From UHGV virus genome UHGV-1553673: 40,191 nucleotides of DNA; one strand, written 5' to 3'. The notes beneath the pieces are model-generated. The model was not told where the DNA came from. It searched no databases and saw only the letters and a program-made list of their open reading frames with translations. Source of the DNA: a virus. Made by a program: the position numbers and the translations under genes. Positions 4,027 to 40,191 of the stretch are shown here, in pieces (positions within the stretch are counted from its first letter, which is position 1; every line of letters begins with the position of its first letter).

Positions 4027-4312
4027 TACTGATAGCGCCATAACGTGAGCGGTAATTACGCAGGCGCGGGTCAATTTCAGGGAAGTGGGTATATGTGGCT
4101 TTGCGGAATGGTCGGATTGATGTCTGGTAAATTCGCTCGCGTTCTTCTTTCTCTGCAAGCCATATACAGTGGCGAAATTCCTTTTCCTCTTTCGTTTCCT
4201 GCGGTAGCGACATTATCCGATCGTAGTTTTTCCTGAATTTATCCAGCACCTCCGATACGGAATTGCCGGAACAGCGGCGCGGGTCATCCGCACCATACAG
4301 AGGCGCTGGCAT
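4019..4312 (-). CDS. Hypothetical early protein (97 aa); possibly Abc-type anti-RecBCD by position
   Basis: Sits downstream of erf/ssb where P22 carries abc1/abc2; sequence not recognised with certainty. Confidence 0.45.
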
Positions 4313-5834: not shown

Positions 5835-6809
5835 CTATTTGATGTCTTGCGTGTAGCCTGTACCGCAACAGCATGAGCATTGCTCTATTGGCGCGTGAAT
5901 GGTATCCATAAGCGTCGTAAGGAAGTTATCAATCATTTCCTTTAGCTCCCATTCGTTATTGGCTTTGAACCCTTTAATCGCCGTATAACCTTTGTAATTT
6001 TCTTGGTCATGTGTCATTTGGAAAATTTCAATTTCTTTCACCGTGTCAGTCTTAAAGTGCAACTTTGCTCTTTGCTTCTTGGTTCTGGCAAAAATATCCT
6101 GATATGAATATGTGTGAGGCTTAAGGAGCGGTATTATTTTTTTAACGGTAAAGCAAAATGCGTAATCACTTGTTATTCTAGCCAGTTTGTTGTCGATGTT
6201 ATCTTTTACGTGCTGGCGTACAATGTCATACATTTCTTTTGATGAAATTTCACAAGGGCTGTTAGCCCGCAAAGGCTCAGGAATTATGATGCAGTCAACA
6301 AGAGAGTGTTTTACGTTTATGTTTTTTACAACGTACCTCTCCTCCCGGAACCCAACATGCCTAATTGCAGAGTAATTAAATTCTGGTGCGTCACGAAAAT
6401 TTTCAACCTCACATACTAATGTGAATTCAGCGTCAACTGGAGAGGTGTAATCAGGTGCAGTATCGTATTTGTATTCATAAAGAGAGCCTCTGATATCCTC
6501 GTCCACTGCGTCACGCTCATTGTAACTAAGTGTCAAAGGGTATTTTTTACTCTCAAGTTCAGCATCTTTAAGCTCGTAGCGAACATTAATTCTTTCACCA
6601 GAGATAATTCTCTCAACCTTTTCAGGGTAATGTTCAATTTCAAACCAGTTTTTGTGAAAGCTGGCTTTGGGTTTAACTCCGTCAAATAGGAGATCAGCAA
6701 TTTTAGATTGATGGTACTGGTAGTGATAACCGTCCTTTGCTGTGCAATCAGTGATAAAACATTTACCAGCGTCGGTTTTAATAATGCTTATTTGCAATGC
6801 GTTACTCAT
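5835..6809 (-). CDS. Hypothetical 324-aa protein in an AT-rich moron; candidate accessory/defence gene
   Basis: GC visibly lower than the flanks; GGAGG RBS before the ATG at 6809; hairpins flank both ends; cysteine-rich C-terminus CSCCCGTG; no family recognised. Confidence 0.6.
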   Translation of the reverse strand: MSNALQISIIKTDAGKCFITDCTAKDGYHYQYHQSKIADLLFDGVKPKASFHKNWFEIEHYPEKVERIISGERINVRYELKDAELESKKYPLTLSYNERDAVDEDIRGSLYEYKYDTAPDYTSPVDAEFTLVCEVENFRDAPEFNYSAIRHVGFREERYVVKNINVKHSLVDCIIIPEPLRANSPCEISSKEMYDIVRQHVKDNIDNKLARITSDYAFCFTVKKIIPLLKPHTYSYQDIFARTKKQRAKLHFKTDTVKEIEIFQMTHDQENYKGYTAIKGFKANNEWELKEMIDNFLTTLMDTIHAPIEQCSCCCGTGYTQDIK

Positions 6810-6983
6810 ATCTCCTCCAGGCAAAAAGAATGCCCTCACACTGGAGGGCAAAGAAGATTTCCAATAATCAGAACAAGTCGGCTCCTGTTTAGTTACGAGC
6901 GACATTGCTCCGTGTATTCACTCGTTGGAATGAATACACAGTGCAGTGTTTATTCTGTTGTTTATGCCAAAAATAAAGGCCGA

Positions 6984-7607
6984 CTATGCGGCCTCGGAAG
7001 GAAGTCCAATCATCTTATTCAAATCTTCTACCCGTAAAGCAGGAAGTGCTGTACTTGCTTTGTCTGCTTCTTTTGGTAGCAATTCTTTGCTTTCAGGCCA
7101 AACTTCAATAAGTCGCTTAACTGTTGTGACTGAGTTCAAAGCAGCCCATACATTTGATTCGATATCCTTTTTCTTGGCTTCAAGTTTTTGTTGCAATGCG
7201 CAGATTTCATCAAACCTTTTTGTTATTTCGTGTTCTGCGTCAAACATGCATTTATCTTTGGTCGGAGTAGGGAGCAATATATCTTCGCCGTTGCCGTCTT
7301 TCCCATATGAATGCCATCCAACCCTTCTGCCAGATACAGTCAGATAAATTGAAGTAGAACGAACATCGTATGAGTAAAATGAACATCCCATCTTTTCAAG
7401 TTCTTCACTTATAGCTACCAACTTGGATGATAACTGATCCACTTCCTCAGTTTTCTTTTTACCGCCAAACGCAATAACTCTGGCGTCAAGTGCAAGCTGG
7501 TTCTTTAACTTTGTTACTTCTTCAAGTTCAGTGAAAACCCCAGACTTAATTAAAGCGTTACGAGCGATTTCCTCTTTCATTCTCGTAGTTAAGCGGATTG
7601 ATGACAT
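6984..7607 (-). CDS. Hypothetical 207-aa protein (AT-rich region)
   Basis: RBS gagagg before the ATG at 7607; central coiled-coil-like stretch; family uncertain. Confidence 0.5.
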   Translation of the reverse strand: MSSIRLTTRMKEEIARNALIKSGVFTELEEVTKLKNQLALDARVIAFGGKKKTEEVDQLSSKLVAISEELEKMGCSFYSYDVRSTSIYLTVSGRRVGWHSYGKDGNGEDILLPTPTKDKCMFDAEHEITKRFDEICALQQKLEAKKKDIESNVWAALNSVTTVKRLIEVWPESKELLPKEADKASTALPALRVEDLNKMIGLPSEAA

Positions 7608-7672
7608 ATTAATTCCTCTCAAATAAGTGCTTTGCTGCCAAAACAATGAACCATCCGGAAATTCCAGATAGT

Positions 7673-7897
7673 TCATAATTCACTCTTCAATACTTCCAAC
7701 TTACTAATCGCCGATAGATATCCGCGCTGATAGGGCATCATCATTCCTTCGAGCTTGCCACTTCTTAACTCCTCCCTGAGCAATTGTATTGCTTGATCAA
7801 TAACCTCTGCCTTAGCGTCCTTTATGGCTTGCTTGCGGGGCTTTGCTTTCTGCTTTGGCAGATTTCTCAAGCATGATGGAATGTATGTCTGATTCAT
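7673..7897 (-). CDS. Hypothetical small protein (74 aa)
   Basis: Lies directly downstream of the N-like gene on the same strand. Confidence 0.4.
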   Translation of the reverse strand: MNQTYIPSCLRNLPKQKAKPRKQAIKDAKAEVIDQAIQLLREELRSGKLEGMMMPYQRGYLSAISKLEVLKSEL

Positions 7898-7900
7898 CAC

Positions 7901-8173
7901 TTACCTGGCTGTCAGTTGTTTTGATTTCCGGTAGCCTGCCGAGTAAATGGCTACGTTTGGCAGGCAAATACTTCCACTGCATTCTTCTGCCTTCTTGCAG
8001 CGAAGGCTTCCGAGTGATGCTGCTTTGTCTGCTCTGACGCAACCAGAGAGATTTAGCGCAATTTTTCGCGCCAGTGCTTCATTACTGCGTCGCTCGGCAA
8101 TAAGTTCTGCTCTGCGAGCTTTGTAGCGGCTTTTTGCCGTACCTTTGGATTCTTTCCAGACAATGGTTACCAT
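7901..8173 (-). CDS. N-type transcription antiterminator (P22 gene 24-like)
   Basis: Arg-rich motif near the N-terminus (KSRYKARRAELIAERR); C-terminus ...AGYRKSKQLTAR resembles P22 gp24; AAGGAG RBS; nutL immediately upstream. Confidence 0.75.
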   Translation of the reverse strand: MVTIVWKESKGTAKSRYKARRAELIAERRSNEALARKIALNLSGCVRADKAASLGSLRCKKAEECSGSICLPNVAIYSAGYRKSKQLTAR

Positions 8174-8283
8174 GATGGTCTCCTTTAAGTGGCTTTGGCG
8201 CATGACGCGTCGAGGTGCTTATCTTCTCGATCGCTGTCTTGCAGCTGCAATTCGCGCCATCCCCAAAACCACTCAAGTTCTGG

Positions 8284-8323
8284 TCTCAACGGTTAGGTTG
8301 AGAGTCCGTCGATGTTAAAGAGC
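8284..8323 (-). promoter_or_regulatory. nutL: boxA GCTCTTTAACA plus boxB hairpin
   Basis: Minus-strand boxA at 8313-8323 and hairpin TCTCAAC-CTAACC-GTTGAGA at 8284-8303. Confidence 0.7.
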
Positions 8324-8369
8324 CTGCCAATCTGTTCCTTGTGGCGTCTCAGCGTCCTGCTGATGGAAA

Positions 8370-8440
8370 TGATAGTCACATATTGTGATTTAATGGTCAA
8401 TCACAAAATGTGTAAAATAAAGGTGTGACACGTTATGTGT
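8370..8440 (-). promoter_or_regulatory. OL operators and putative pL
   Basis: Repeated ATCACA..TGTG operator-like motifs resembling those at OR; minus-strand TTGACC then a 17-nt spacer. Confidence 0.55.
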
Positions 8441-8650
8441 ATGATTTTTTTGTGTAAATAGTTTTACCCGCGATGGTTTTGCTTACTTAAGTCGGTGACA
8501 ACAGCAGGATGGGTGCTGAAAAGTTCGAAAAACGAGCGAATGGGGTGGTGGCGAGATGGCGGGATATGGGAGTTGTATTAAGAATTATAGTAATTTAATC
8601 AATAGTTTGGACCGGCGGGCAGGTGCTGTCCTGATAGTGATCGGCGGGCA

Positions 8651-8676
8651 ATAAAAAACCCGGCTCGGTGGCCGGA
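8651..8676 (-). terminator. Rho-independent terminator after the cI-linked operon
   Basis: Minus strand CCGGC-caccga-GCCGG followed by GTTTTTTAT. Confidence 0.6.
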
Positions 8677-8685
8677 TTTGCTAAA

Positions 8686-9237
8686 TTACTGACCTTTCTT
8701 AAGGTACAAGTTTATTAGGAAAAATATAGTTGGCATAGCAAGCGAGGCCAGGAGAACCCCGAGCATCCATACTTTTACATCTGCTATCTTGGTTTCCAAA
8801 GCGGAAAATTTAGCTTCAAAGTAGTCAACCGATGGTTTCTTAGATAATGAAGCATCAAAATCCAGGCTCTTCTGTAAAAGTACAGCGGTGTCTCTTTTGG
8901 CGTCAGTAGAATCAGAAGATATTTTCCGGGTATCCTCTTTAATTCCTGCCATGCTGCTCTTGATGTGCGCAACTTCAGCTTCAAGAACTGCTAATCGCTT
9001 ATCCATGTCGTCGCCTCCATCATCACTTGTTGTTTGAATGATCTCAGTATCATCCATCACAACCGATGTGACAATCCGTTTTTCTTTATCTGAAGCAGCA
9101 ACAGAACAAGCTTTCATCAAGAGCGTTGCTTGGCTTGATGCTACAGAAGAAAATTCCAGCCCTACTGTAGAGCCATTCTTATCAGAGTAAGCAATTACTA
9201 GCTTTCCCTCATCCAAAGATGATTGAGCTGCATTCAT
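8686..9237 (-). CDS. Hypothetical 183-aa protein with C-terminal transmembrane anchor; second gene of the cI-linked operon
   Basis: C-terminal hydrophobic helix VWMLGVLLASLAMPTIFFLINLYL; coiled-coil-like middle; GAGGA RBS; starts 6 nt after the upstream stop. Confidence 0.6.
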   Translation of the reverse strand: MNAAQSSLDEGKLVIAYSDKNGSTVGLEFSSVASSQATLLMKACSVAASDKEKRIVTSVVMDDTEIIQTTSDDGGDDMDKRLAVLEAEVAHIKSSMAGIKEDTRKISSDSTDAKRDTAVLLQKSLDFDASLSKKPSVDYFEAKFSALETKIADVKVWMLGVLLASLAMPTIFFLINLYLKKGQ

Positions 9238-9243
9238 CAGCTT

Positions 9244-9525
9244 TTATTCCTCGAACATGCTTTTCAAGGACTGATAGAAATCGAAGGCCTTCTGTTTACT
9301 TAAAGTCACGGACGCAACCTTAGTGCGCTGCATTCCTGCCACTGCGATTTCGCCATTCATATGGCCGATGACAGGGGTGCTATTGAGAAAAACGAAGTTA
9401 AAAACTTCGTAGCCATTGTTATCCGTTCCGATGGTTACAACCCCATCAGCATTAGTTTCAATATAATTTTTGGACTCCAGCACATCATTGATATGTGCTA
9501 AGGTAACTTCTTGTTTATCGCTCAC
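9244..9525 (-). CDS. Hypothetical 93-aa protein; first gene of the cI-linked operon
   Basis: GTG start with AGGAGA RBS 7 nt upstream; lower GC than the flanks. Confidence 0.55.
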   Translation of the reverse strand: MSDKQEVTLAHINDVLESKNYIETNADGVVTIGTDNNGYEVFNFVFLNSTPVIGHMNGEIAVAGMQRTKVASVTLSKQKAFDFYQSLKSMFEE

Positions 9526-9647
9526 TTATGTTCTCCTGAACCAACAAAATAGGTAAAAATCTTTTCAATTTCATTAGATTAATTTGCATAAAAAGAACAG
9601 GGAAAAGTTGGATTACCAGCTATGCGCCGACCAGAACACCTTGCCGA

Positions 9648-10295
9648 TCAGCCAAACGTCTCTTCAGGCCACTGCGCCTTAACTACCTTGCCTATGATGC
9701 GGCAGCTATGGTCGCAATCCAGGGTTCTATATGCCGGGTTTAAAGGTACCAGGTAACTAACCCCTGCATCCTTCTCATACTTCTTGAACGTTGCCTCTGA
9801 ATCACCATTTGCAGAAGCCACGCAGAAATCCCCAGACTCTACCGGCTCAGCCGGATCAACGAGTATCAGCATGCCTTCCGGAAAACTTGGACGAACCCCC
9901 TGAGGCGCCGTCATTGAATGCCCCTTCACCTCAAGCCAGAAAGCTTTTTCGCTGGCTTTTGTGGTCGTTGGGACCCATGCCTTTGCATCGCTGGCTGTGT
10001 AGCTTCCCACCTCCGAAAATGGCCCGGCCTGCACTGAAGAAAATAACGGGTATTCATATTGGCGAAATACGGCGTCTGAATCCTCGCCAAACATTATTTT
10101 TGCCGGAGATACGCCGAGTGCCGCCCCAAGAACCAGCGCGTCATCCGCGCTAACCTTTCTTGTTCCTAACTCGTAGTTCCCCAGGCGTGAAGGCGCAGCC
10201 CAGCCGCAAAGCTTGGCCAATTGAGCCTGGCTAAGTCCTTTAGCTTCTCTAAGGGACTTTATCCTTTCCCCGATAATTTCATGCATCGTTTTCAT
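9648..10295 (-). CDS. cI: CI/C2-type prophage repressor (HTH + S24 LexA-like peptidase domain)
   Basis: N-terminal XRE HTH ([11 protein letters not shown]); C-terminal GHSM...KK autocleavage motifs; divergent from cro. Confidence 0.9.
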
Positions 10296-10299
10296 CCCT

Positions 10300-10380
10300 T
10301 AAATGTAACACGCAACGTGATTGAACTCTGTACACGAATTGAGGTTGACTGTTAATCACAAATTGTGTGTAATGGGTGTG
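10300..10380. promoter_or_regulatory. OR operators with pR and pRM
   Basis: TTGACT (10345-10350), 17-nt spacer, TGTAAT (10368-10373); operator-like AATCACAAATTGTGTG overlaps. Confidence 0.6.
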
Positions 10381-10403
10381 TGATTAATGCTAGGGAGACC
10401 GCA

Positions 10404-10622
10404 ATGAACAAAATTGCCCAGCAGCGAAAAAAAATCGGAGTTTCGCAAGCTGTACTAGCTTCGGCAATTGGTTGGGGGCAATCCCGCATCGCCAACTATG
10501 AGCTGAATATCCGTACTCCTGGCCTTAACGATTGCCGAATGATCGTAGAAGGCCTCAGGAAGTTAGGGTGCCAATGTTCTTTGGATGATGTTTTCCCTCC
10601 ATCCAGTAACAAAGCCGCCTAA
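10404..10622 (+). CDS. cro: Cro-like HTH regulator
   Basis: XRE-family HTH (IGVSQAVLASAIGWGQSRIANYE); AGGGAG RBS; divergent from cI. Confidence 0.8.
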   Translation: MNKIAQQRKKIGVSQAVLASAIGWGQSRIANYELNIRTPGLNDCRMIVEGLRKLGCQCSLDDVFPPSSNKAA

Positions 10623-10630
10623 GCAGTACC

Positions 10631-10672
10631 CGCTCTTTAACAGTCATGGCCTTTCACCTCTAACCGGGTGAG
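10631..10672 (+). promoter_or_regulatory. nutR: boxA CGCTCTTTAACA plus boxB hairpin
   Basis: boxA at 10631-10642; hairpin tcaccTCTAACCgggtga with the same CUAACC loop as nutL. Confidence 0.7.
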
Positions 10673-10739
10673 CAAACATCAGCGGCAAATCCATTGGGTG
10701 TGCCGCTATAACTCAATATCAATATAGGAAAATTAACAA

Positions 10740-11036
10740 ATGGCACAAGCAAGCTACAGCAAGCCAACACAGCGAGAAATTGATCGCGCTGAAACTGATT
10801 TACTCATCAACCTGTCAACGCTTACCCAGCGCGGTCTGGCAAAGATGATTGGCTGTCATGAATCGAAGATAAGCAGAACGGACTGGAGATTTATTGCTTC
10901 GGTCTTGTGTGCTTTCGGAATGGCATCAGACATCAGTCCGATTAGCAGGGCTTTTAAGTATGCGCTTGATGAAATCACAAAGAAAAAATCCCCGGCCGCC
11001 ACCGAGGATTTTAAGCAAATTGATATGCAATTCTGA
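10740..11036 (+). CDS. cII: CII-like transcriptional activator
   Basis: C-terminus ...[18 protein letters not shown] resembles lambda CII ...KKRPAATERSEQIQMEF. Confidence 0.8.
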
Positions 11037-36837: not shown

Positions 36838-38625
36838 TTATTTCAAAGATTGAAGTAAGTCTGTTTTTTTGTCTAAGACTTCTCCAATGTAACTTGCTCC
36901 ATATTTCGTTAGATGGTTTGCATCATATGATAAAAATTTGCCATTCTCATCAAAAACTCTAACCATTCCATTGTTGTCTTTTATAAGGTCAAACAAATCT
37001 ATGTAGTCATCGCCAAAAATCATTTTCGCCTTATTGTTAAACTCTATATATCTTGATAGCGGGTATGTTTTTGCTAAAACTCTGTCATTAAGAGACAGGT
37101 TAACAGCAAAGTTATTGTTATACCCGAAGTTTTTTGTGCCAATCAAGTACATTTTTGCAGTTGTTTTTGATTTTATGTAATCGTAACAGTGTTTTAACTT
37201 TTCAACGTTATTATTATAGTCGCCTGCACCCCAATTCTCCGAATATAAAATAATGTCTGAGTCATTCAAGTAGTAATCTAATTTATTTTTATTATCTATT
37301 GACCAATCACATCCACCCTCAAAATATACAATATTAAGATCATTTGTTTTAATCTTTGTAGATATTGCATTAATTAAATCTCTCGCATATGAGTTACCCA
37401 TGATTAATATTTTCTTTCCATTGTCTGAGAACTCAATATTCTTTAATTTCTTCGGGCTATCCACATACTCCTGTGGATTTCCTCCATATGCAAGATCAGG
37501 CCTGATATTTTGCAATCCATATGTTTTGTGCATCAAAATTCCTGATGCTGATAACACCAACGAAAATGCTAATGTATATGATAAGATTTTTTTTGTAGAT
37601 GTTTTTCTCTTGTTTCTGAATGGTTTTTCTACAAAAACATAAGACATCCACGATATAATAAAAATTAAAGGAATGGATGCGATAAAATATGTTGTTGACG
37701 GTTCAAATTTTGAGTTTAATCTTATAAATGCAAAAACAGGTTGATGCCAAAGGTATAGAGAATAACTTATCATGCCACATAACACAATTGGTTTTATTGA
37801 CATGAGCTTTCCAATTCCTTTAGATGCATTTGAATGCATTAAAAACAAACATGCACCAAGAACTGGAAATAATGTTTCAAATCCAGGGTGTGATTTTTTA
37901 CCATTCACAATGAAGTAACTTGATATTATCAATAAAAAACCAAGGTATGCTAAGATGTTACTTTTTCTTTTTATTTTATAGTGCGCAATAGCGGCAACCC
38001 CACCAAGAGCAATCTCCCACGCCCTTGAAGGGAGCATAAGAAATGAAAGCTCCATATTATGCACTGTTGTAATTGTTGCATATAAAAAACTGGCAATTGA
38101 TATTACCAGTAAAAACATAAAACTATTCTTTATTAGTTTATTATGATTTATTGAGTAAATTATATATATTATTACAGGGGCTACAAGATAATACTGTTCT
38201 TCTACAGCAAGACTCCATGTGTGATACAATGGTTTAAATTCAGATGCTGTAGACCAATATCCTGACGTTAAGTACAATAATATATTGTTTGCTGAAAAAA
38301 TTGTTGCAACAACTGATTGACCTAGATTCTTTAGGTCATATGGAACCATCATAAATAATGATATAATGAATGTTACTGATGTCATTAGAATTAATGCAGG
38401 CGCAATTCTACGAACCCTTCTCTCATAAAACCCAGAGAATGTAAATGTTCTATTGCTGCATTCTTTCAGCAAAATGCTGGTAATTAAAAAACCACTAATA
38501 ACAAAAAAAACATCTACTCCAAGAAAGCCGCCAGGAATCCATTGAACACCTGCATGAAAAAAGATAACAGGTAAAACAGCTAATGTTCTCAACCCATCAA
38601 TTTCGGGTCTGTATTTCAGTTCCAT
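36838..38625 (-). CDS. O-antigen acyltransferase, OafA/Oac-type (acyltransferase-3 membrane domain + SGNH domain); lysogenic conversion gene
   Basis: 595 aa; multi-TM N-terminal half (MELKYRPEIDGLRTLAVLPVIFFHAG...); C-terminal GNSYARD SGNH-like motif; strongly AT-rich. Confidence 0.8.
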   Translation of the reverse strand: MELKYRPEIDGLRTLAVLPVIFFHAGVQWIPGGFLGVDVFFVISGFLITSILLKECSNRTFTFSGFYERRVRRIAPALILMTSVTFIISLFMMVPYDLKNLGQSVVATIFSANNILLYLTSGYWSTASEFKPLYHTWSLAVEEQYYLVAPVIIYIIYSINHNKLIKNSFMFLLVISIASFLYATITTVHNMELSFLMLPSRAWEIALGGVAAIAHYKIKRKSNILAYLGFLLIISSYFIVNGKKSHPGFETLFPVLGACLFLMHSNASKGIGKLMSIKPIVLCGMISYSLYLWHQPVFAFIRLNSKFEPSTTYFIASIPLIFIISWMSYVFVEKPFRNKRKTSTKKILSYTLAFSLVLSASGILMHKTYGLQNIRPDLAYGGNPQEYVDSPKKLKNIEFSDNGKKILIMGNSYARDLINAISTKIKTNDLNIVYFEGGCDWSIDNKNKLDYYLNDSDIILYSENWGAGDYNNNVEKLKHCYDYIKSKTTAKMYLIGTKNFGYNNNFAVNLSLNDRVLAKTYPLSRYIEFNNKAKMIFGDDYIDLFDLIKDNNGMVRVFDENGKFLSYDANHLTKYGASYIGEVLDKKTDLLQSLK

Positions 38626-38797: not shown

Positions 38798-39979
38798 TCA
38801 TTGATGTGGCCTAAAAGTTGCGCTATTTTTCTCTCCATCAAGCCAATCTGCCCACCACTGCATCATTTCTCTGCGCTTATCTAGATACTGAGCATGGTTG
38901 TAAATCCCGCGCACAGATCCGCCGTTGGCATGTGCAAGTTGCACTTCAATAGCATCAGCAGGCCATTCGTGCTCGTTCATAATCGTGCTGAATTCATGCC
39001 TGAATCCGTGACCGCTTTCCAGACCCTCATAGCCGATTCGTTTGATCACAAGTAATACCGCGTTCTCGCAGATTGGCTTCTTCTTATCGTTACGCCCGGC
39101 AAAAACAAACTCTGATACTGGTTTGGTGATTGAGCTTAGCGTAGTGAGAAGTTCAACCACCTGGTCTGACATAGGAACCACATGAATTTTGCGTCCCTTC
39201 ATCACACTGGCGTCGATAGTGATAATCCTGTTTTCAAAATCGACGTTCTTCCATTGCATGGAACGAAGCTCTTTCGTTCTTAGGGCTGTGTAGCGTAAAA
39301 CTTTGGTCGCAATGAGCGATACGATGCTTCCTGAAAATGTTGCCAGTGCTTTGTTGAATGCCGGGATCTGGTCTGCAGGAAGAAACGGGAAGTTCTTCTT
39401 GCGGTATCCTTTCATGGCGTCAGCAAGGTCAGGTGCCGGGTTATATTTAGCCCTACCAGTGACAATAGCGTAACGGAAAACCTCGCCGCATCTTCTGCGG
39501 GCTTTATTTGCTCGCTCCATTGCACCGCGATCTTCAAATCTGCGGATTACTTCCAGTAGTTGCATCGGCTCAATATCCTGAATTTCAAGACCGCCGATGA
39601 TGGGTAAAATGTCGTCATCAAACATTTTTGCAAGTTCATTTGCATAGCCTACTGACCAGACTTGCTTCTTGTGCTCGTACCATTCCTTGTAAATGGCGCT
39701 AAAGGAATTGTTGTTAGATGAAGCCTTTTTCGCCTTTACCGGATCGATGCCAACCGAGATGTCTTTCCTCGCGGTCCATGCTTTATCCCTTGCTTCCTGC
39801 AAAGTCATAAGCGGATATTTTCCGACAGTCAGGATTTTCTCCTTACCGTCAATCTTGTAGCGAAGCTGCCATACCTTTTTCCCTGATACAGGGACATAAA
39901 GGTACAGGCCATTACCATCGAGTAGGCGGTATGGTTTTTCTTTCGGCTTTGCTGCTTCAATCTGCTTAACGGTGAGCAT
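38798..39979 (-). CDS. int: Tyrosine integrase, P4/IntS-type
   Basis: N-terminal arm-binding domain (LTVKQIEAAKPKEKPYRLLDGNGLYLYV...); C-terminal catalytic R..H..R..Y region; adjacent to the tRNA; the ORF extends to 40015 with a non-ATG start. Confidence 0.9.
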   Translation of the reverse strand: MLTVKQIEAAKPKEKPYRLLDGNGLYLYVPVSGKKVWQLRYKIDGKEKILTVGKYPLMTLQEARDKAWTARKDISVGIDPVKAKKASSNNNSFSAIYKEWYEHKKQVWSVGYANELAKMFDDDILPIIGGLEIQDIEPMQLLEVIRRFEDRGAMERANKARRRCGEVFRYAIVTGRAKYNPAPDLADAMKGYRKKNFPFLPADQIPAFNKALATFSGSIVSLIATKVLRYTALRTKELRSMQWKNVDFENRIITIDASVMKGRKIHVVPMSDQVVELLTTLSSITKPVSEFVFAGRNDKKKPICENAVLLVIKRIGYEGLESGHGFRHEFSTIMNEHEWPADAIEVQLAHANGGSVRGIYNHAQYLDKRREMMQWWADWLDGEKNSATFRPHQ

Positions 39980-40140
39980 GGGTAAAAATCCGGTGGGTAA
40001 AATTATTTTATCCACTTTTTACCCGTCATGGAGTGCGGCTGTCAACGATCTGACGCGAACCATGACGAACTGTGAATCTACGGAAGGCTTGATATTCAGG
40101 GGATTTTGCGGACTGGTACGGATGGAGGCGAACTGATAAA

Positions 40141-40155
40141 TGGTGTCCCCTGCAG
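40141..40155. repeat. att core copy inside the tRNA 3' end (integrase-proximal)
   Basis: Exact 15-nt repeat of 442-456. Confidence 0.7.
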
Positions 40156-40191
40156 GAATCGAACCTGCAATTAGCCCTTAGGAGGGGCTCG
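40141..40191 (-). tRNA. argW: tRNA-Arg (anticodon CCU), 3' portion; truncated by the window edge
   Basis: Minus strand reads ...AGCCC-CTCCTAA-GGGCT (anticodon stem-loop with CCT), T-arm GCAGG-TTCGATT-CCTGC, acceptor and ACCA. Confidence 0.85.

Follow-up and report, generated by a model that had tools for sequence, protein, structure and literature searches.

The window considered here (the whole 40,191-base stretch analyzed, virus genome UHGV-1553673) contains two short sites on opposite strands, one to each side of a repressor gene, and the question they raise is whether they are the nutL and nutR of an N-type antitermination system and, if so, which class of N they serve. They were described in an earlier note as a matched pair, each with a boxA followed by a hairpin with a CTAACC loop, and this description stands: the 11-mer GCTCTTTAACA occurs exactly twice in the window, at 8313–8323 on the minus strand and 10632–10642 on the plus strand, with spacers of 9–10 nt before the hairpins. 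The boxA 11-mer alone was set aside as evidence, since it is statistically unremarkable when up to one mismatch is allowed (at least two matches in 20 of 100 shuffles). The composite pattern GCTCTTTAACA-N5-20-CTAACC, by comparison, has two matches in the window vs. none in all 100 shuffles.

Both sites have the general lambdoid arrangement: a boxA (CGCUCUUUAACA-like) with a boxB a short distance 3′ of it, both on the strand that is transcribed (from PL for nutL and from PR for nutR). In nutL, read on the minus strand, the boxA (GCUCUUUAACA, 8323 to 8313) is followed by a 9-nt spacer (UCGACGGAC) and a boxB hairpin at 8284–8303, with the stem UCUCAAC/GUUGAGA and the loop CUAACC at 8291–8296. In nutR, on the plus strand, the same boxA (10632–10642) is followed by a 10-nt spacer (GUCAUGGCCU) and a boxB hairpin at 10653–10672, with the stem UUCACCU/GGGUGAG, including two U·G pairs, and the loop CUAACC at 10660–10665. 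All seven stem pairs differ between the two sites, five on both sides and two on one side, and yet pairing is kept at all seven; the loop is identical despite these stem differences.

Both hairpins fold, alone and in transcript context; a failure to do so had been named in the earlier note as grounds for refutation. RNAfold gives a 7-bp stem and 6-nt loop for each boxB, as minimum free energy structure and as centroid, and both hairpins are kept when folded within 121–148 nt of transcript. The minimal nutL hairpin has a predicted energy of −7.4 kcal/mol (z = −5.1; 0 of 200 shuffles as good), and the minimal nutR hairpin −7.3 kcal/mol (z = −2.2; 8 of 200 as good). Segments of 56 nt around the sites do not outdo their shuffled versions in folding energy (z of roughly −0.1 to −0.3), which is unsurprising for boxB hairpins of this small size; since only the minimal hairpins stand out, folding energy alone is insufficient to establish nut sites. 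A whole-window Rfam scan at gathering thresholds found only a cut tRNA (40144–40191) and no nut site, a neutral result because no curated Rfam family covers nut sites.

The layout around the sites can be read from the Stx1 prophage VT1-Sakai (AP000400.1), which has 99.5% DNA identity to the window over 7911–10750 and the same PL, PR, operators, cI, cro, and tR1. A consensus promoter scan found neither PL nor PR, because their −10 hexamers (GACTAT and TGTAAT) are below its match thresholds; they were therefore placed by transfer of the VT1-Sakai annotation (for PL and oL, with a constant offset of 6410), with the hexamers read by eye. PL is thereby assigned to 8372–8400 on the minus strand (TTGACC-17 nt-GACTAT), with three oL operators at 8374–8390, 8399–8415, and 8426–8442 on the same strand, and PR to 10345–10373 on the plus strand (TTGACT-17 nt-TGTAAT), with oR operators at 10306–10322, 10330–10346, and 10354–10370. 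The core of the region is a cI-type repressor gene (9648–10295, minus strand) with HTH and Peptidase_S24 domains, and the gene that transcription from PR enters first is cro (10404–10622, plus strand; 72 aa, HTH_3), both assigned from Pfam and the VT1-Sakai annotation. The two sites thus flank the immunity region, as the earlier note had it, with PL/oL, cI, PR/oR, and cro between them. Neither PADLOC nor Pfam, run on the ORFs adjoining the nut sites, gave a match for the two ORFs in the rex position.

By the ORF map and Pfam, nutL lies between PL and N, its boxA about 40 nt downstream of the leftward transcript start, while nutR follows the cro stop codon, ahead of tR1 and cII. This order, PL-nutL-N and PR-cro-nutR-tR1-cII, is the same in the annotated records of lambda, P22, phage 21, and VT1-Sakai. 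The putative tR1 region (10681–10716, plus strand), placed by transferred annotation only, is listed as a putatively rho-dependent terminator of the PR transcript in VT1-Sakai and likewise in phage 21; the hairpin it contains (10681–10707) is without a U-run. On the leftward side, two intrinsic-terminator-like hairpins with U-runs downstream of N, at 6976–6995 (−11.0 kcal/mol, z = −1.9) and 6831–6850 (−12.3 kcal/mol, z = −3.2) on the minus strand, are candidates for tL as pattern matches only.

For comparison of class, nut sites of lambda and P22 were taken from the genome records of these phages and folded beside those of the window. Lambda shares the architecture and gene order, with boxA preceding a boxB hairpin, but has a 5-bp boxB stem, GNRA-like pentaloops (GAAGA in nutL, GAAAA in nutR), a shorter boxA (CGCUCUUA), and an N with an unrelated arginine-rich motif (MDAQTRRRERRAEKQAQW). 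P22 also shares the architecture, with the nutL boxA CGCUCUUUAAC, but its boxB loops are of GACAA type, its arginine-rich motif is GNAKTRRHERRRKLAIER, and its N is just 38% identical overall to that of the window. Neither a lambda-type (GAAGA/GAAAA) nor a P22-type (GACAA) pentaloop is present at the window sites, whose loops differ from these in length as well as sequence; the earlier note, which had called the loop unlike either one, was right in this.

The match is instead to coliphage 21 (OL657228.1), with the CUAACC hexaloop of its boxB found at both window sites. The window nutL is identical base for base, through boxA, spacer, and boxB, to the features annotated there as “boxA-L” and stem_loop “nutL”; the nutR boxA and boxB are identical to the “boxA-R” region and stem_loop “nutR”, with 2 nt changed in the spacer between them. 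From boxB through the cII start, the two genomes differ by one base. The placement relative to PL, N, cro, tR1, and cII is shared as well. The window repressor, operators, and cro between the nut sites are not those of imm21, but match VT1-Sakai and mEpX1, and the phage backbone is P22-like, unlike that of phage 21. In VT1-Sakai the same sites are annotated “putative N-utilization leftward/rightward”, at coordinates that coincide with those proposed, to the base, in the earlier note, so that its suggested comparison with catalogued nut sites yields matches in both phages. Its further proposal, that the loop indicates a distinct N specificity, holds with respect to lambda and P22 but not as a novelty: PDB entry 1NYB is the complex of the phage 21 N peptide with a boxB bearing a CUAACC hexaloop (PMC12550061, a secondary source), and phage 21 specificity is the classical third class beside lambda and P22, already known.

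The N gene (7901–8173, minus strand) encodes 90 aa and is intact, with AAGGAG as ribosome-binding site 6 nt upstream of its ATG. A 100-aa form beginning at an upstream ATG was rejected in favor of this one, given the AAGGAG and where N begins in phage 21 and VT1-Sakai. The identification of this arginine-rich protein as an N-type antiterminator, made earlier from the sequence, is upheld by its matches to Pfam PF25694 (N_peptide; 62 bits vs. a cut-off of 27.9, residues 4–90) and to phrog_271 (E = 1.5e-33). Its arginine-rich motif, GTAKSRYKARRAELIAERR, is that of phage 21, residues 8–29 being identical at 22 of 22 positions to 1NYB chain A (the phage 21 N peptide), and over residues 1–64 the identity with the N of phage 21 (imm21) is 98.4%, with K41N as the sole change.

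Beyond about residue 64, the window N departs from that of phage 21, whose own C-terminus is lambda-like; its last ~25 aa instead resemble the C-terminal ~24 aa of P22 gp24. This N is thus chimeric by sequence: its boxB-reading and central part are of phage 21 type, while its C-terminus is like that of P22. The VT1-Sakai N, annotated as “similar to phi-21 N”, is 96.7% identical to it and is the same chimera. In sequence comparison, orthology with the N of phage 21 did not extend over the full length of the protein; it fails in the C-terminal segment for RNA polymerase contact, a part that the phage 21 data therefore do not cover. The divergent C-terminus bears on the modular ancestry of N, and not on the class of its nut sites.

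Loop and motif also keep company elsewhere. Among IMG/VR viral contigs, all 48 loci with a nutL-type CUAACC hairpin then carry a GTAKSRYKARR motif on the same strand, while none of 65 loci without the hairpin has it. The exact phage 21-type motif is found in 33 loci, in every case starting 180 nt after boxA; variant motifs start 184–224 nt after it, and 15 of the 48 loci encode natural N variants keeping only GTAKSRYKARR. One natural variant of the N peptide is GTAKSRYKARRAAKIEQAQQDAS. An IMG/VR variant with four perfect pairs was rejected as a separate class of site, being a nutR variant with one C·A mismatch in an otherwise 8-pair stem. Among complete E. coli genomes, about 6% have these nut sites.

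Taken together, the two sites are almost certainly nutL and nutR of an N antitermination system of phage 21 type, housed in a common, P22-like (IME10-like) lambdoid E. coli prophage with a VT1-Sakai-type immunity region. The relationship to VT1-Sakai has its limits: sieB adjoins N in that prophage, where the window has a 75-aa ORF and an Nmad5 gene, and its replication genes are of the lambda O/P type, while those of the window are O and a DnaB-like helicase. Its nutR boxA also has a 3-nt deletion and a substitution (GCTCTTTCA---TCATGG), while that of the window is intact and of phage 21 type.

This last difference bears on whether the window sites might be relics in a decaying prophage, inactive since N is not made or is itself inactive. 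The window, a chromosomal prophage, runs between an integrase gene and a tRNA fragment, many E. coli prophages are defective, and the damaged boxA shows that such decay happens in a close relative. Against this, the N ORF is intact and has a good ribosome-binding site, both boxA and both boxB sequences are identical to those of the viable phage 21, and the window has kept genes for cI, cro, cII, O, a DnaB-like helicase, and Q, for homologues of terminase, portal, and scaffold proteins, and for an integrase. Decay of this system therefore seems very improbable.

The sequence GCUCUUUAACA fits an rrn-type boxA more fully than does lambda CGCUCUUA, which counts toward a reading in which a consensus boxA is enough by itself to seed an rrn-like Nus antitermination complex that needs no N, the CUAACC hairpins being incidental. 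Although the rrn complex does depend mainly on boxA, with boxB dispensable under most conditions (PMC8632103), this is the least credible of the explanations considered: the stems of nutL and nutR covary around an unchanging loop, hairpin and phage 21-type arginine-rich motif go together in the IMG/VR loci (48 of 48 vs. 0 of 65), a solved structure has this peptide on this loop (1NYB; PMC12550061), and boxA followed by boxB is the phage order, that of rrn being reversed (PMC8632103).

For the phage 21-type N-nut system favored here, a function can be proposed because the sites are identical to those of phage 21 and analogous to those of lambda, following the general N-nut mechanism (PMC8632103, PMC3526286). 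Upon loss of the repressor, host RNA polymerase would start at PL and PR; leftward it would transcribe nutL some 40 nt from the start of the RNA, and rightward it would transcribe nutR directly behind cro. The linear boxA of the nascent RNA would probably be bound by NusB-NusE, while the boxB hairpin would offer the CUAACC hexaloop to the arginine-rich helix near the N-terminus of N (residues ~8–29); the remainder of N is expected to touch NusA and, via the C-terminus, RNA polymerase. Such an RNA-tethered complex would then move with the polymerase and confer resistance to termination. On the rightward transcript, the first terminator met by N-modified polymerase en route to cII would be the putatively rho-dependent tR1, and read-through would carry it into cII, O, and the DnaB-like helicase gene, then on to Q; on the leftward transcript, it would presumably pass the terminator-like hairpins downstream of N. 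The specificity of this N relative to those of lambda and P22 would lie in the pairing of boxB loop and arginine-rich motif.

No unanswered question turns on this locus. It might be speculated, with rather little confidence, that the chimeric N, acting with a full GCUCUUUAACA boxA, differs from phage 21 N in its NusA/NusB/NusE dependence or in the range of terminators it overcomes, and that the variants keeping only GTAKSRYKARR may indicate a CUAACC loop read by no more than the first half of the arginine-rich helix.

The value of the assignment is mainly in correct annotation: the early antitermination module is of phage 21 type, and is therefore expected to be heterospecific to the N proteins of lambda and P22. 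Identification of the nut sites further bears out the calling of the N gene and the arrangement of the transcripts. Lambdoid mosaicism is illustrated both by the modular N and by the natural N variants that share its boxB, and these proteins could help to dissect which residues of N recognize the CUAACC loop.

The window (40,191 bases) holds exactly two copies of the 11-mer GCTCTTTAACA, one at 8313-8323 (minus strand) and the other at 10632-10642 (plus strand). This boxA is not improbable alone, since at least two matches with one mismatch allowed arise in 20 of 100 shuffles; the composite GCTCTTTAACA-N5-20-CTAACC has two matches in the window and none in any of 100 shuffles. As RNA, nutL reads GCUCUUUAACA-UCGACGGAC-UCUCAAC-CUAACC-GUUGAGA (minus strand, boxB 8303->8284) and nutR reads GCUCUUUAACA-GUCAUGGCCU-UUCACCU-CUAACC-GGGUGAG (plus strand, boxB 10653-10672); the earlier note had described a boxA followed by a CTAACC-loop hairpin at both sites, and its coordinates are exact to the base. 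The hairpins also hold up on folding: with RNAfold, a 7-bp stem and 6-nt loop is both the MFE and the centroid structure for each boxB (z = -5.1 for nutL and -2.2 for nutR, minimal hairpins against shuffles), and both are retained in 121-148 nt of transcript context. All seven stem pairs differ between nutL and nutR, five of them through two-sided changes, with pairing intact and the loop identical.

The sites flank the immunity region as in lambda and P22, as had been proposed, in the canonical lambdoid order N-nutL-PL ... cI ... PR-cro-nutR-cII. On the minus strand, nutL lies between N (7901-8173) and PL/oL (about 8372-8442). A terminator-like hairpin of the repressor operon (8656-8679), cI (9648-10295; HTH and Peptidase_S24), oR/PR (about 10306-10373) and cro (10404-10622) follow, with nutR next, then the tR1 region (10681-10716) and cII (10740-11036; Phage_CII); beyond cII come an O-like ORF and a DnaB-like helicase, and Q (PF03589) lies further along. 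Leftward of N, intrinsic-terminator-like hairpins with U-runs at 6976-6995 and 6831-6850 are candidate N targets.

In a megablast search of window 7850-10750 against phage records, the Stx1 phages phiSTEC801-Stx1a and VT1-Sakai were 99.5-99.6% identical over 98% of the query, and the N/nutL and nutR/cII flanks matched phage 21, lambda imm21 and DE3 at 98%. The phage 21 record annotates boxA-L, nutL, boxA-R, nutR and tR1, and the window sites match these catalogued sites: nutL is identical in boxA, spacer and boxB, nutR has the same boxA and boxB with two base differences in the spacer, and a single base differs from boxB to the cII start. The VT1-Sakai record has "putative N-utilization leftward/rightward" and an N "similar to bacteriophage phi-21 N"; its nutR boxA carries a 3-nt deletion and a substitution (AP000400.1, about 4221-4240, GCTCTTTCA---TCATGG; window 10629-10648, GCTCTTTAACAGTCATGG), while boxA is intact in the window and phage 21.

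For direct comparison, the nut sites annotated in lambda (NC_001416) and in a P22 record were folded alongside those of the window. Lambda has boxA CGCUCUUA and boxB GCCCU-GAAGA-AGGGC (nutL) or GCCCU-GAAAA-AGGGC (nutR), and P22 has boxA CGCUCUUUAAC / CGCUCUUUACC with GACAA-type boxB loops, whereas phage 21 and the window have a 7-bp boxB stem with a CUAACC hexaloop. The loop difference stated in the earlier note is therefore correct, and the distinct N specificity it suggested is distinct from lambda and P22, being the well-known third class, that of phage 21. This class reportedly dates from the work of Franklin (1985, J Mol Biol 181:75) and of Lazinski et al. (1989, Cell 59:207); PMC9074901 lists both papers among its references. 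The nut-site pair is confirmed and its interpretation supported, as a phage 21-type system, already known, of nut sites and N.

The 90-aa Arg-rich protein, called an N-type antiterminator from sequence, matches Pfam N_peptide (PF25694; 62 bits, cut-off 27.9) and phrog_271 ("anti-termination protein N-like"), with AAGGAG 6 nt 5' of its ATG. Residues 8-29 (ESKGTAKSRYKARRAELIAERR) are identical at 22 of 22 positions to chain A of PDB 1NYB, the phage phi21 complex of N peptide and boxB RNA with a CUAACC hexaloop (PMC12550061, citing Cilley & Williamson 2003). Residues 1-64 are phage 21-type, with K41N the sole exception; HK630 N shares 95% identity with residues 34-90, and the last ~24-25 are common to 933W/VT2-Sakai-type N proteins and P22 gp24-like. 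Phage 21 N has its own C-terminus, lambda N-like at 22 of 37 residues. Judged by sequence, N is a natural modular chimera with a phage 21-type front and a P22-gp24-like C-terminus; VT1-Sakai N (96.7% identity) is the same chimera, which is therefore not new.

In the general mechanism of N antitermination, N binds NusA and RNA polymerase, and the resulting complex stays attached to the nascent RNA and resists termination (PMC8632103); at nutR/tR1, where nut and rut sites overlap, Rho is counteracted by N (PMC3526286). By identity to phage 21 and analogy to lambda N, the PL and PR transcripts here would carry a boxA that binds NusB-NusE and a boxB bound by the arginine-rich helix of N; N, also contacting NusA and RNA polymerase, would form such an RNA-tethered complex, antiterminate through nutL and nutR, and counteract Rho at nutR/tR1. 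There is a small possibility that the P22-type C-terminus changes the host-factor requirements of N.

The window overall is a P22-like (IME10-like) prophage, and early regions near-identical to its own are present in several complete E. coli chromosomes. At its right end, a cut 3' tRNA fragment (40144-40191, minus strand), the probable attachment site, lies beside a tyrosine integrase (38798-40015, minus), which adjoins an AT3-SGNH acyltransferase (36838-38625, minus), likely an O-antigen-modifying lysogenic conversion gene. Between cI and the 8656-8679 hairpin, where lambda has rexA/rexB, are minus-strand ORFs of 183 aa (8686-9237; phrog_12602, with a hydrophobic C-terminal stretch) and 93 aa (9244-9525; phrog_12039). 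Neither had a match in Pfam and PADLOC scans; both are present in VT1-Sakai and HK544, VT1-Sakai annotating the 183-aa ORF only, and they are plausibly lysogen-expressed exclusion or defence genes. In VT1-Sakai and P22 sieB adjoins N; the leftward operon 3' of N here (5835-7900, minus) instead has a 75-aa ORF (phrog_5305), an Nmad5 protein ("nucleotide modification associated domain 5", PF18757; 6984-7676, minus) and a phrog_20113 ORF (5835-6905, minus) whose homology begins at residue 34.

Among complete E. coli genomes, 336 of 5426 contain nutL and 329 of 5426 the nutR-tR1 segment. An IMG/VR scan for the composite boxA-CTAACC pattern gave at least 119 stretches. True CUAACC hairpins among the matches listed are of the window's two stem types, plus a nutR variant whose stem has one C.A mismatch. 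Among these matches, 48 loci have a nutL-type hairpin, and in every one of them the same strand encodes a GTAKSRYKARR motif downstream; at the 65 loci where the pattern matched but no CUAACC-loop hairpin is present, the motif is absent throughout. A protein and its cognate RNA would be expected to co-occur in this way. In at least about 25 instances, the IMG/VR sequence GCTCTTTAACAATCTGG(A/G)TAT(T/C)CCTAACC has the same boxA with CTAACC not in a hairpin loop, one subtype placing it within the 5' arm of another stem (GGUAUUCCUAACCACAAAGGAAU). Such non-loop loci are probably a different nut class that fits the composite pattern by chance.

Of the 48 nutL loci listed, 33 have the exact phage 21 motif, which begins 180 nt after boxA; in the other 15, GTAKSRYKARR begins 184-224 nt after boxA and the sequence diverges past ..KARR. 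These variants keep GTAKSRYKARR, followed by ..AAKIEQAQQDAS or ..EELIAERRSSER (for example at IMG/VR loci L007 5809, L029 7035, L037 3043, L045 and L093), and a CUAACC nutR is also retained in 8 of the 15. N variants with the same CUAACC nutL offer a natural experiment on which segment of the arginine-rich helix recognises the loop.
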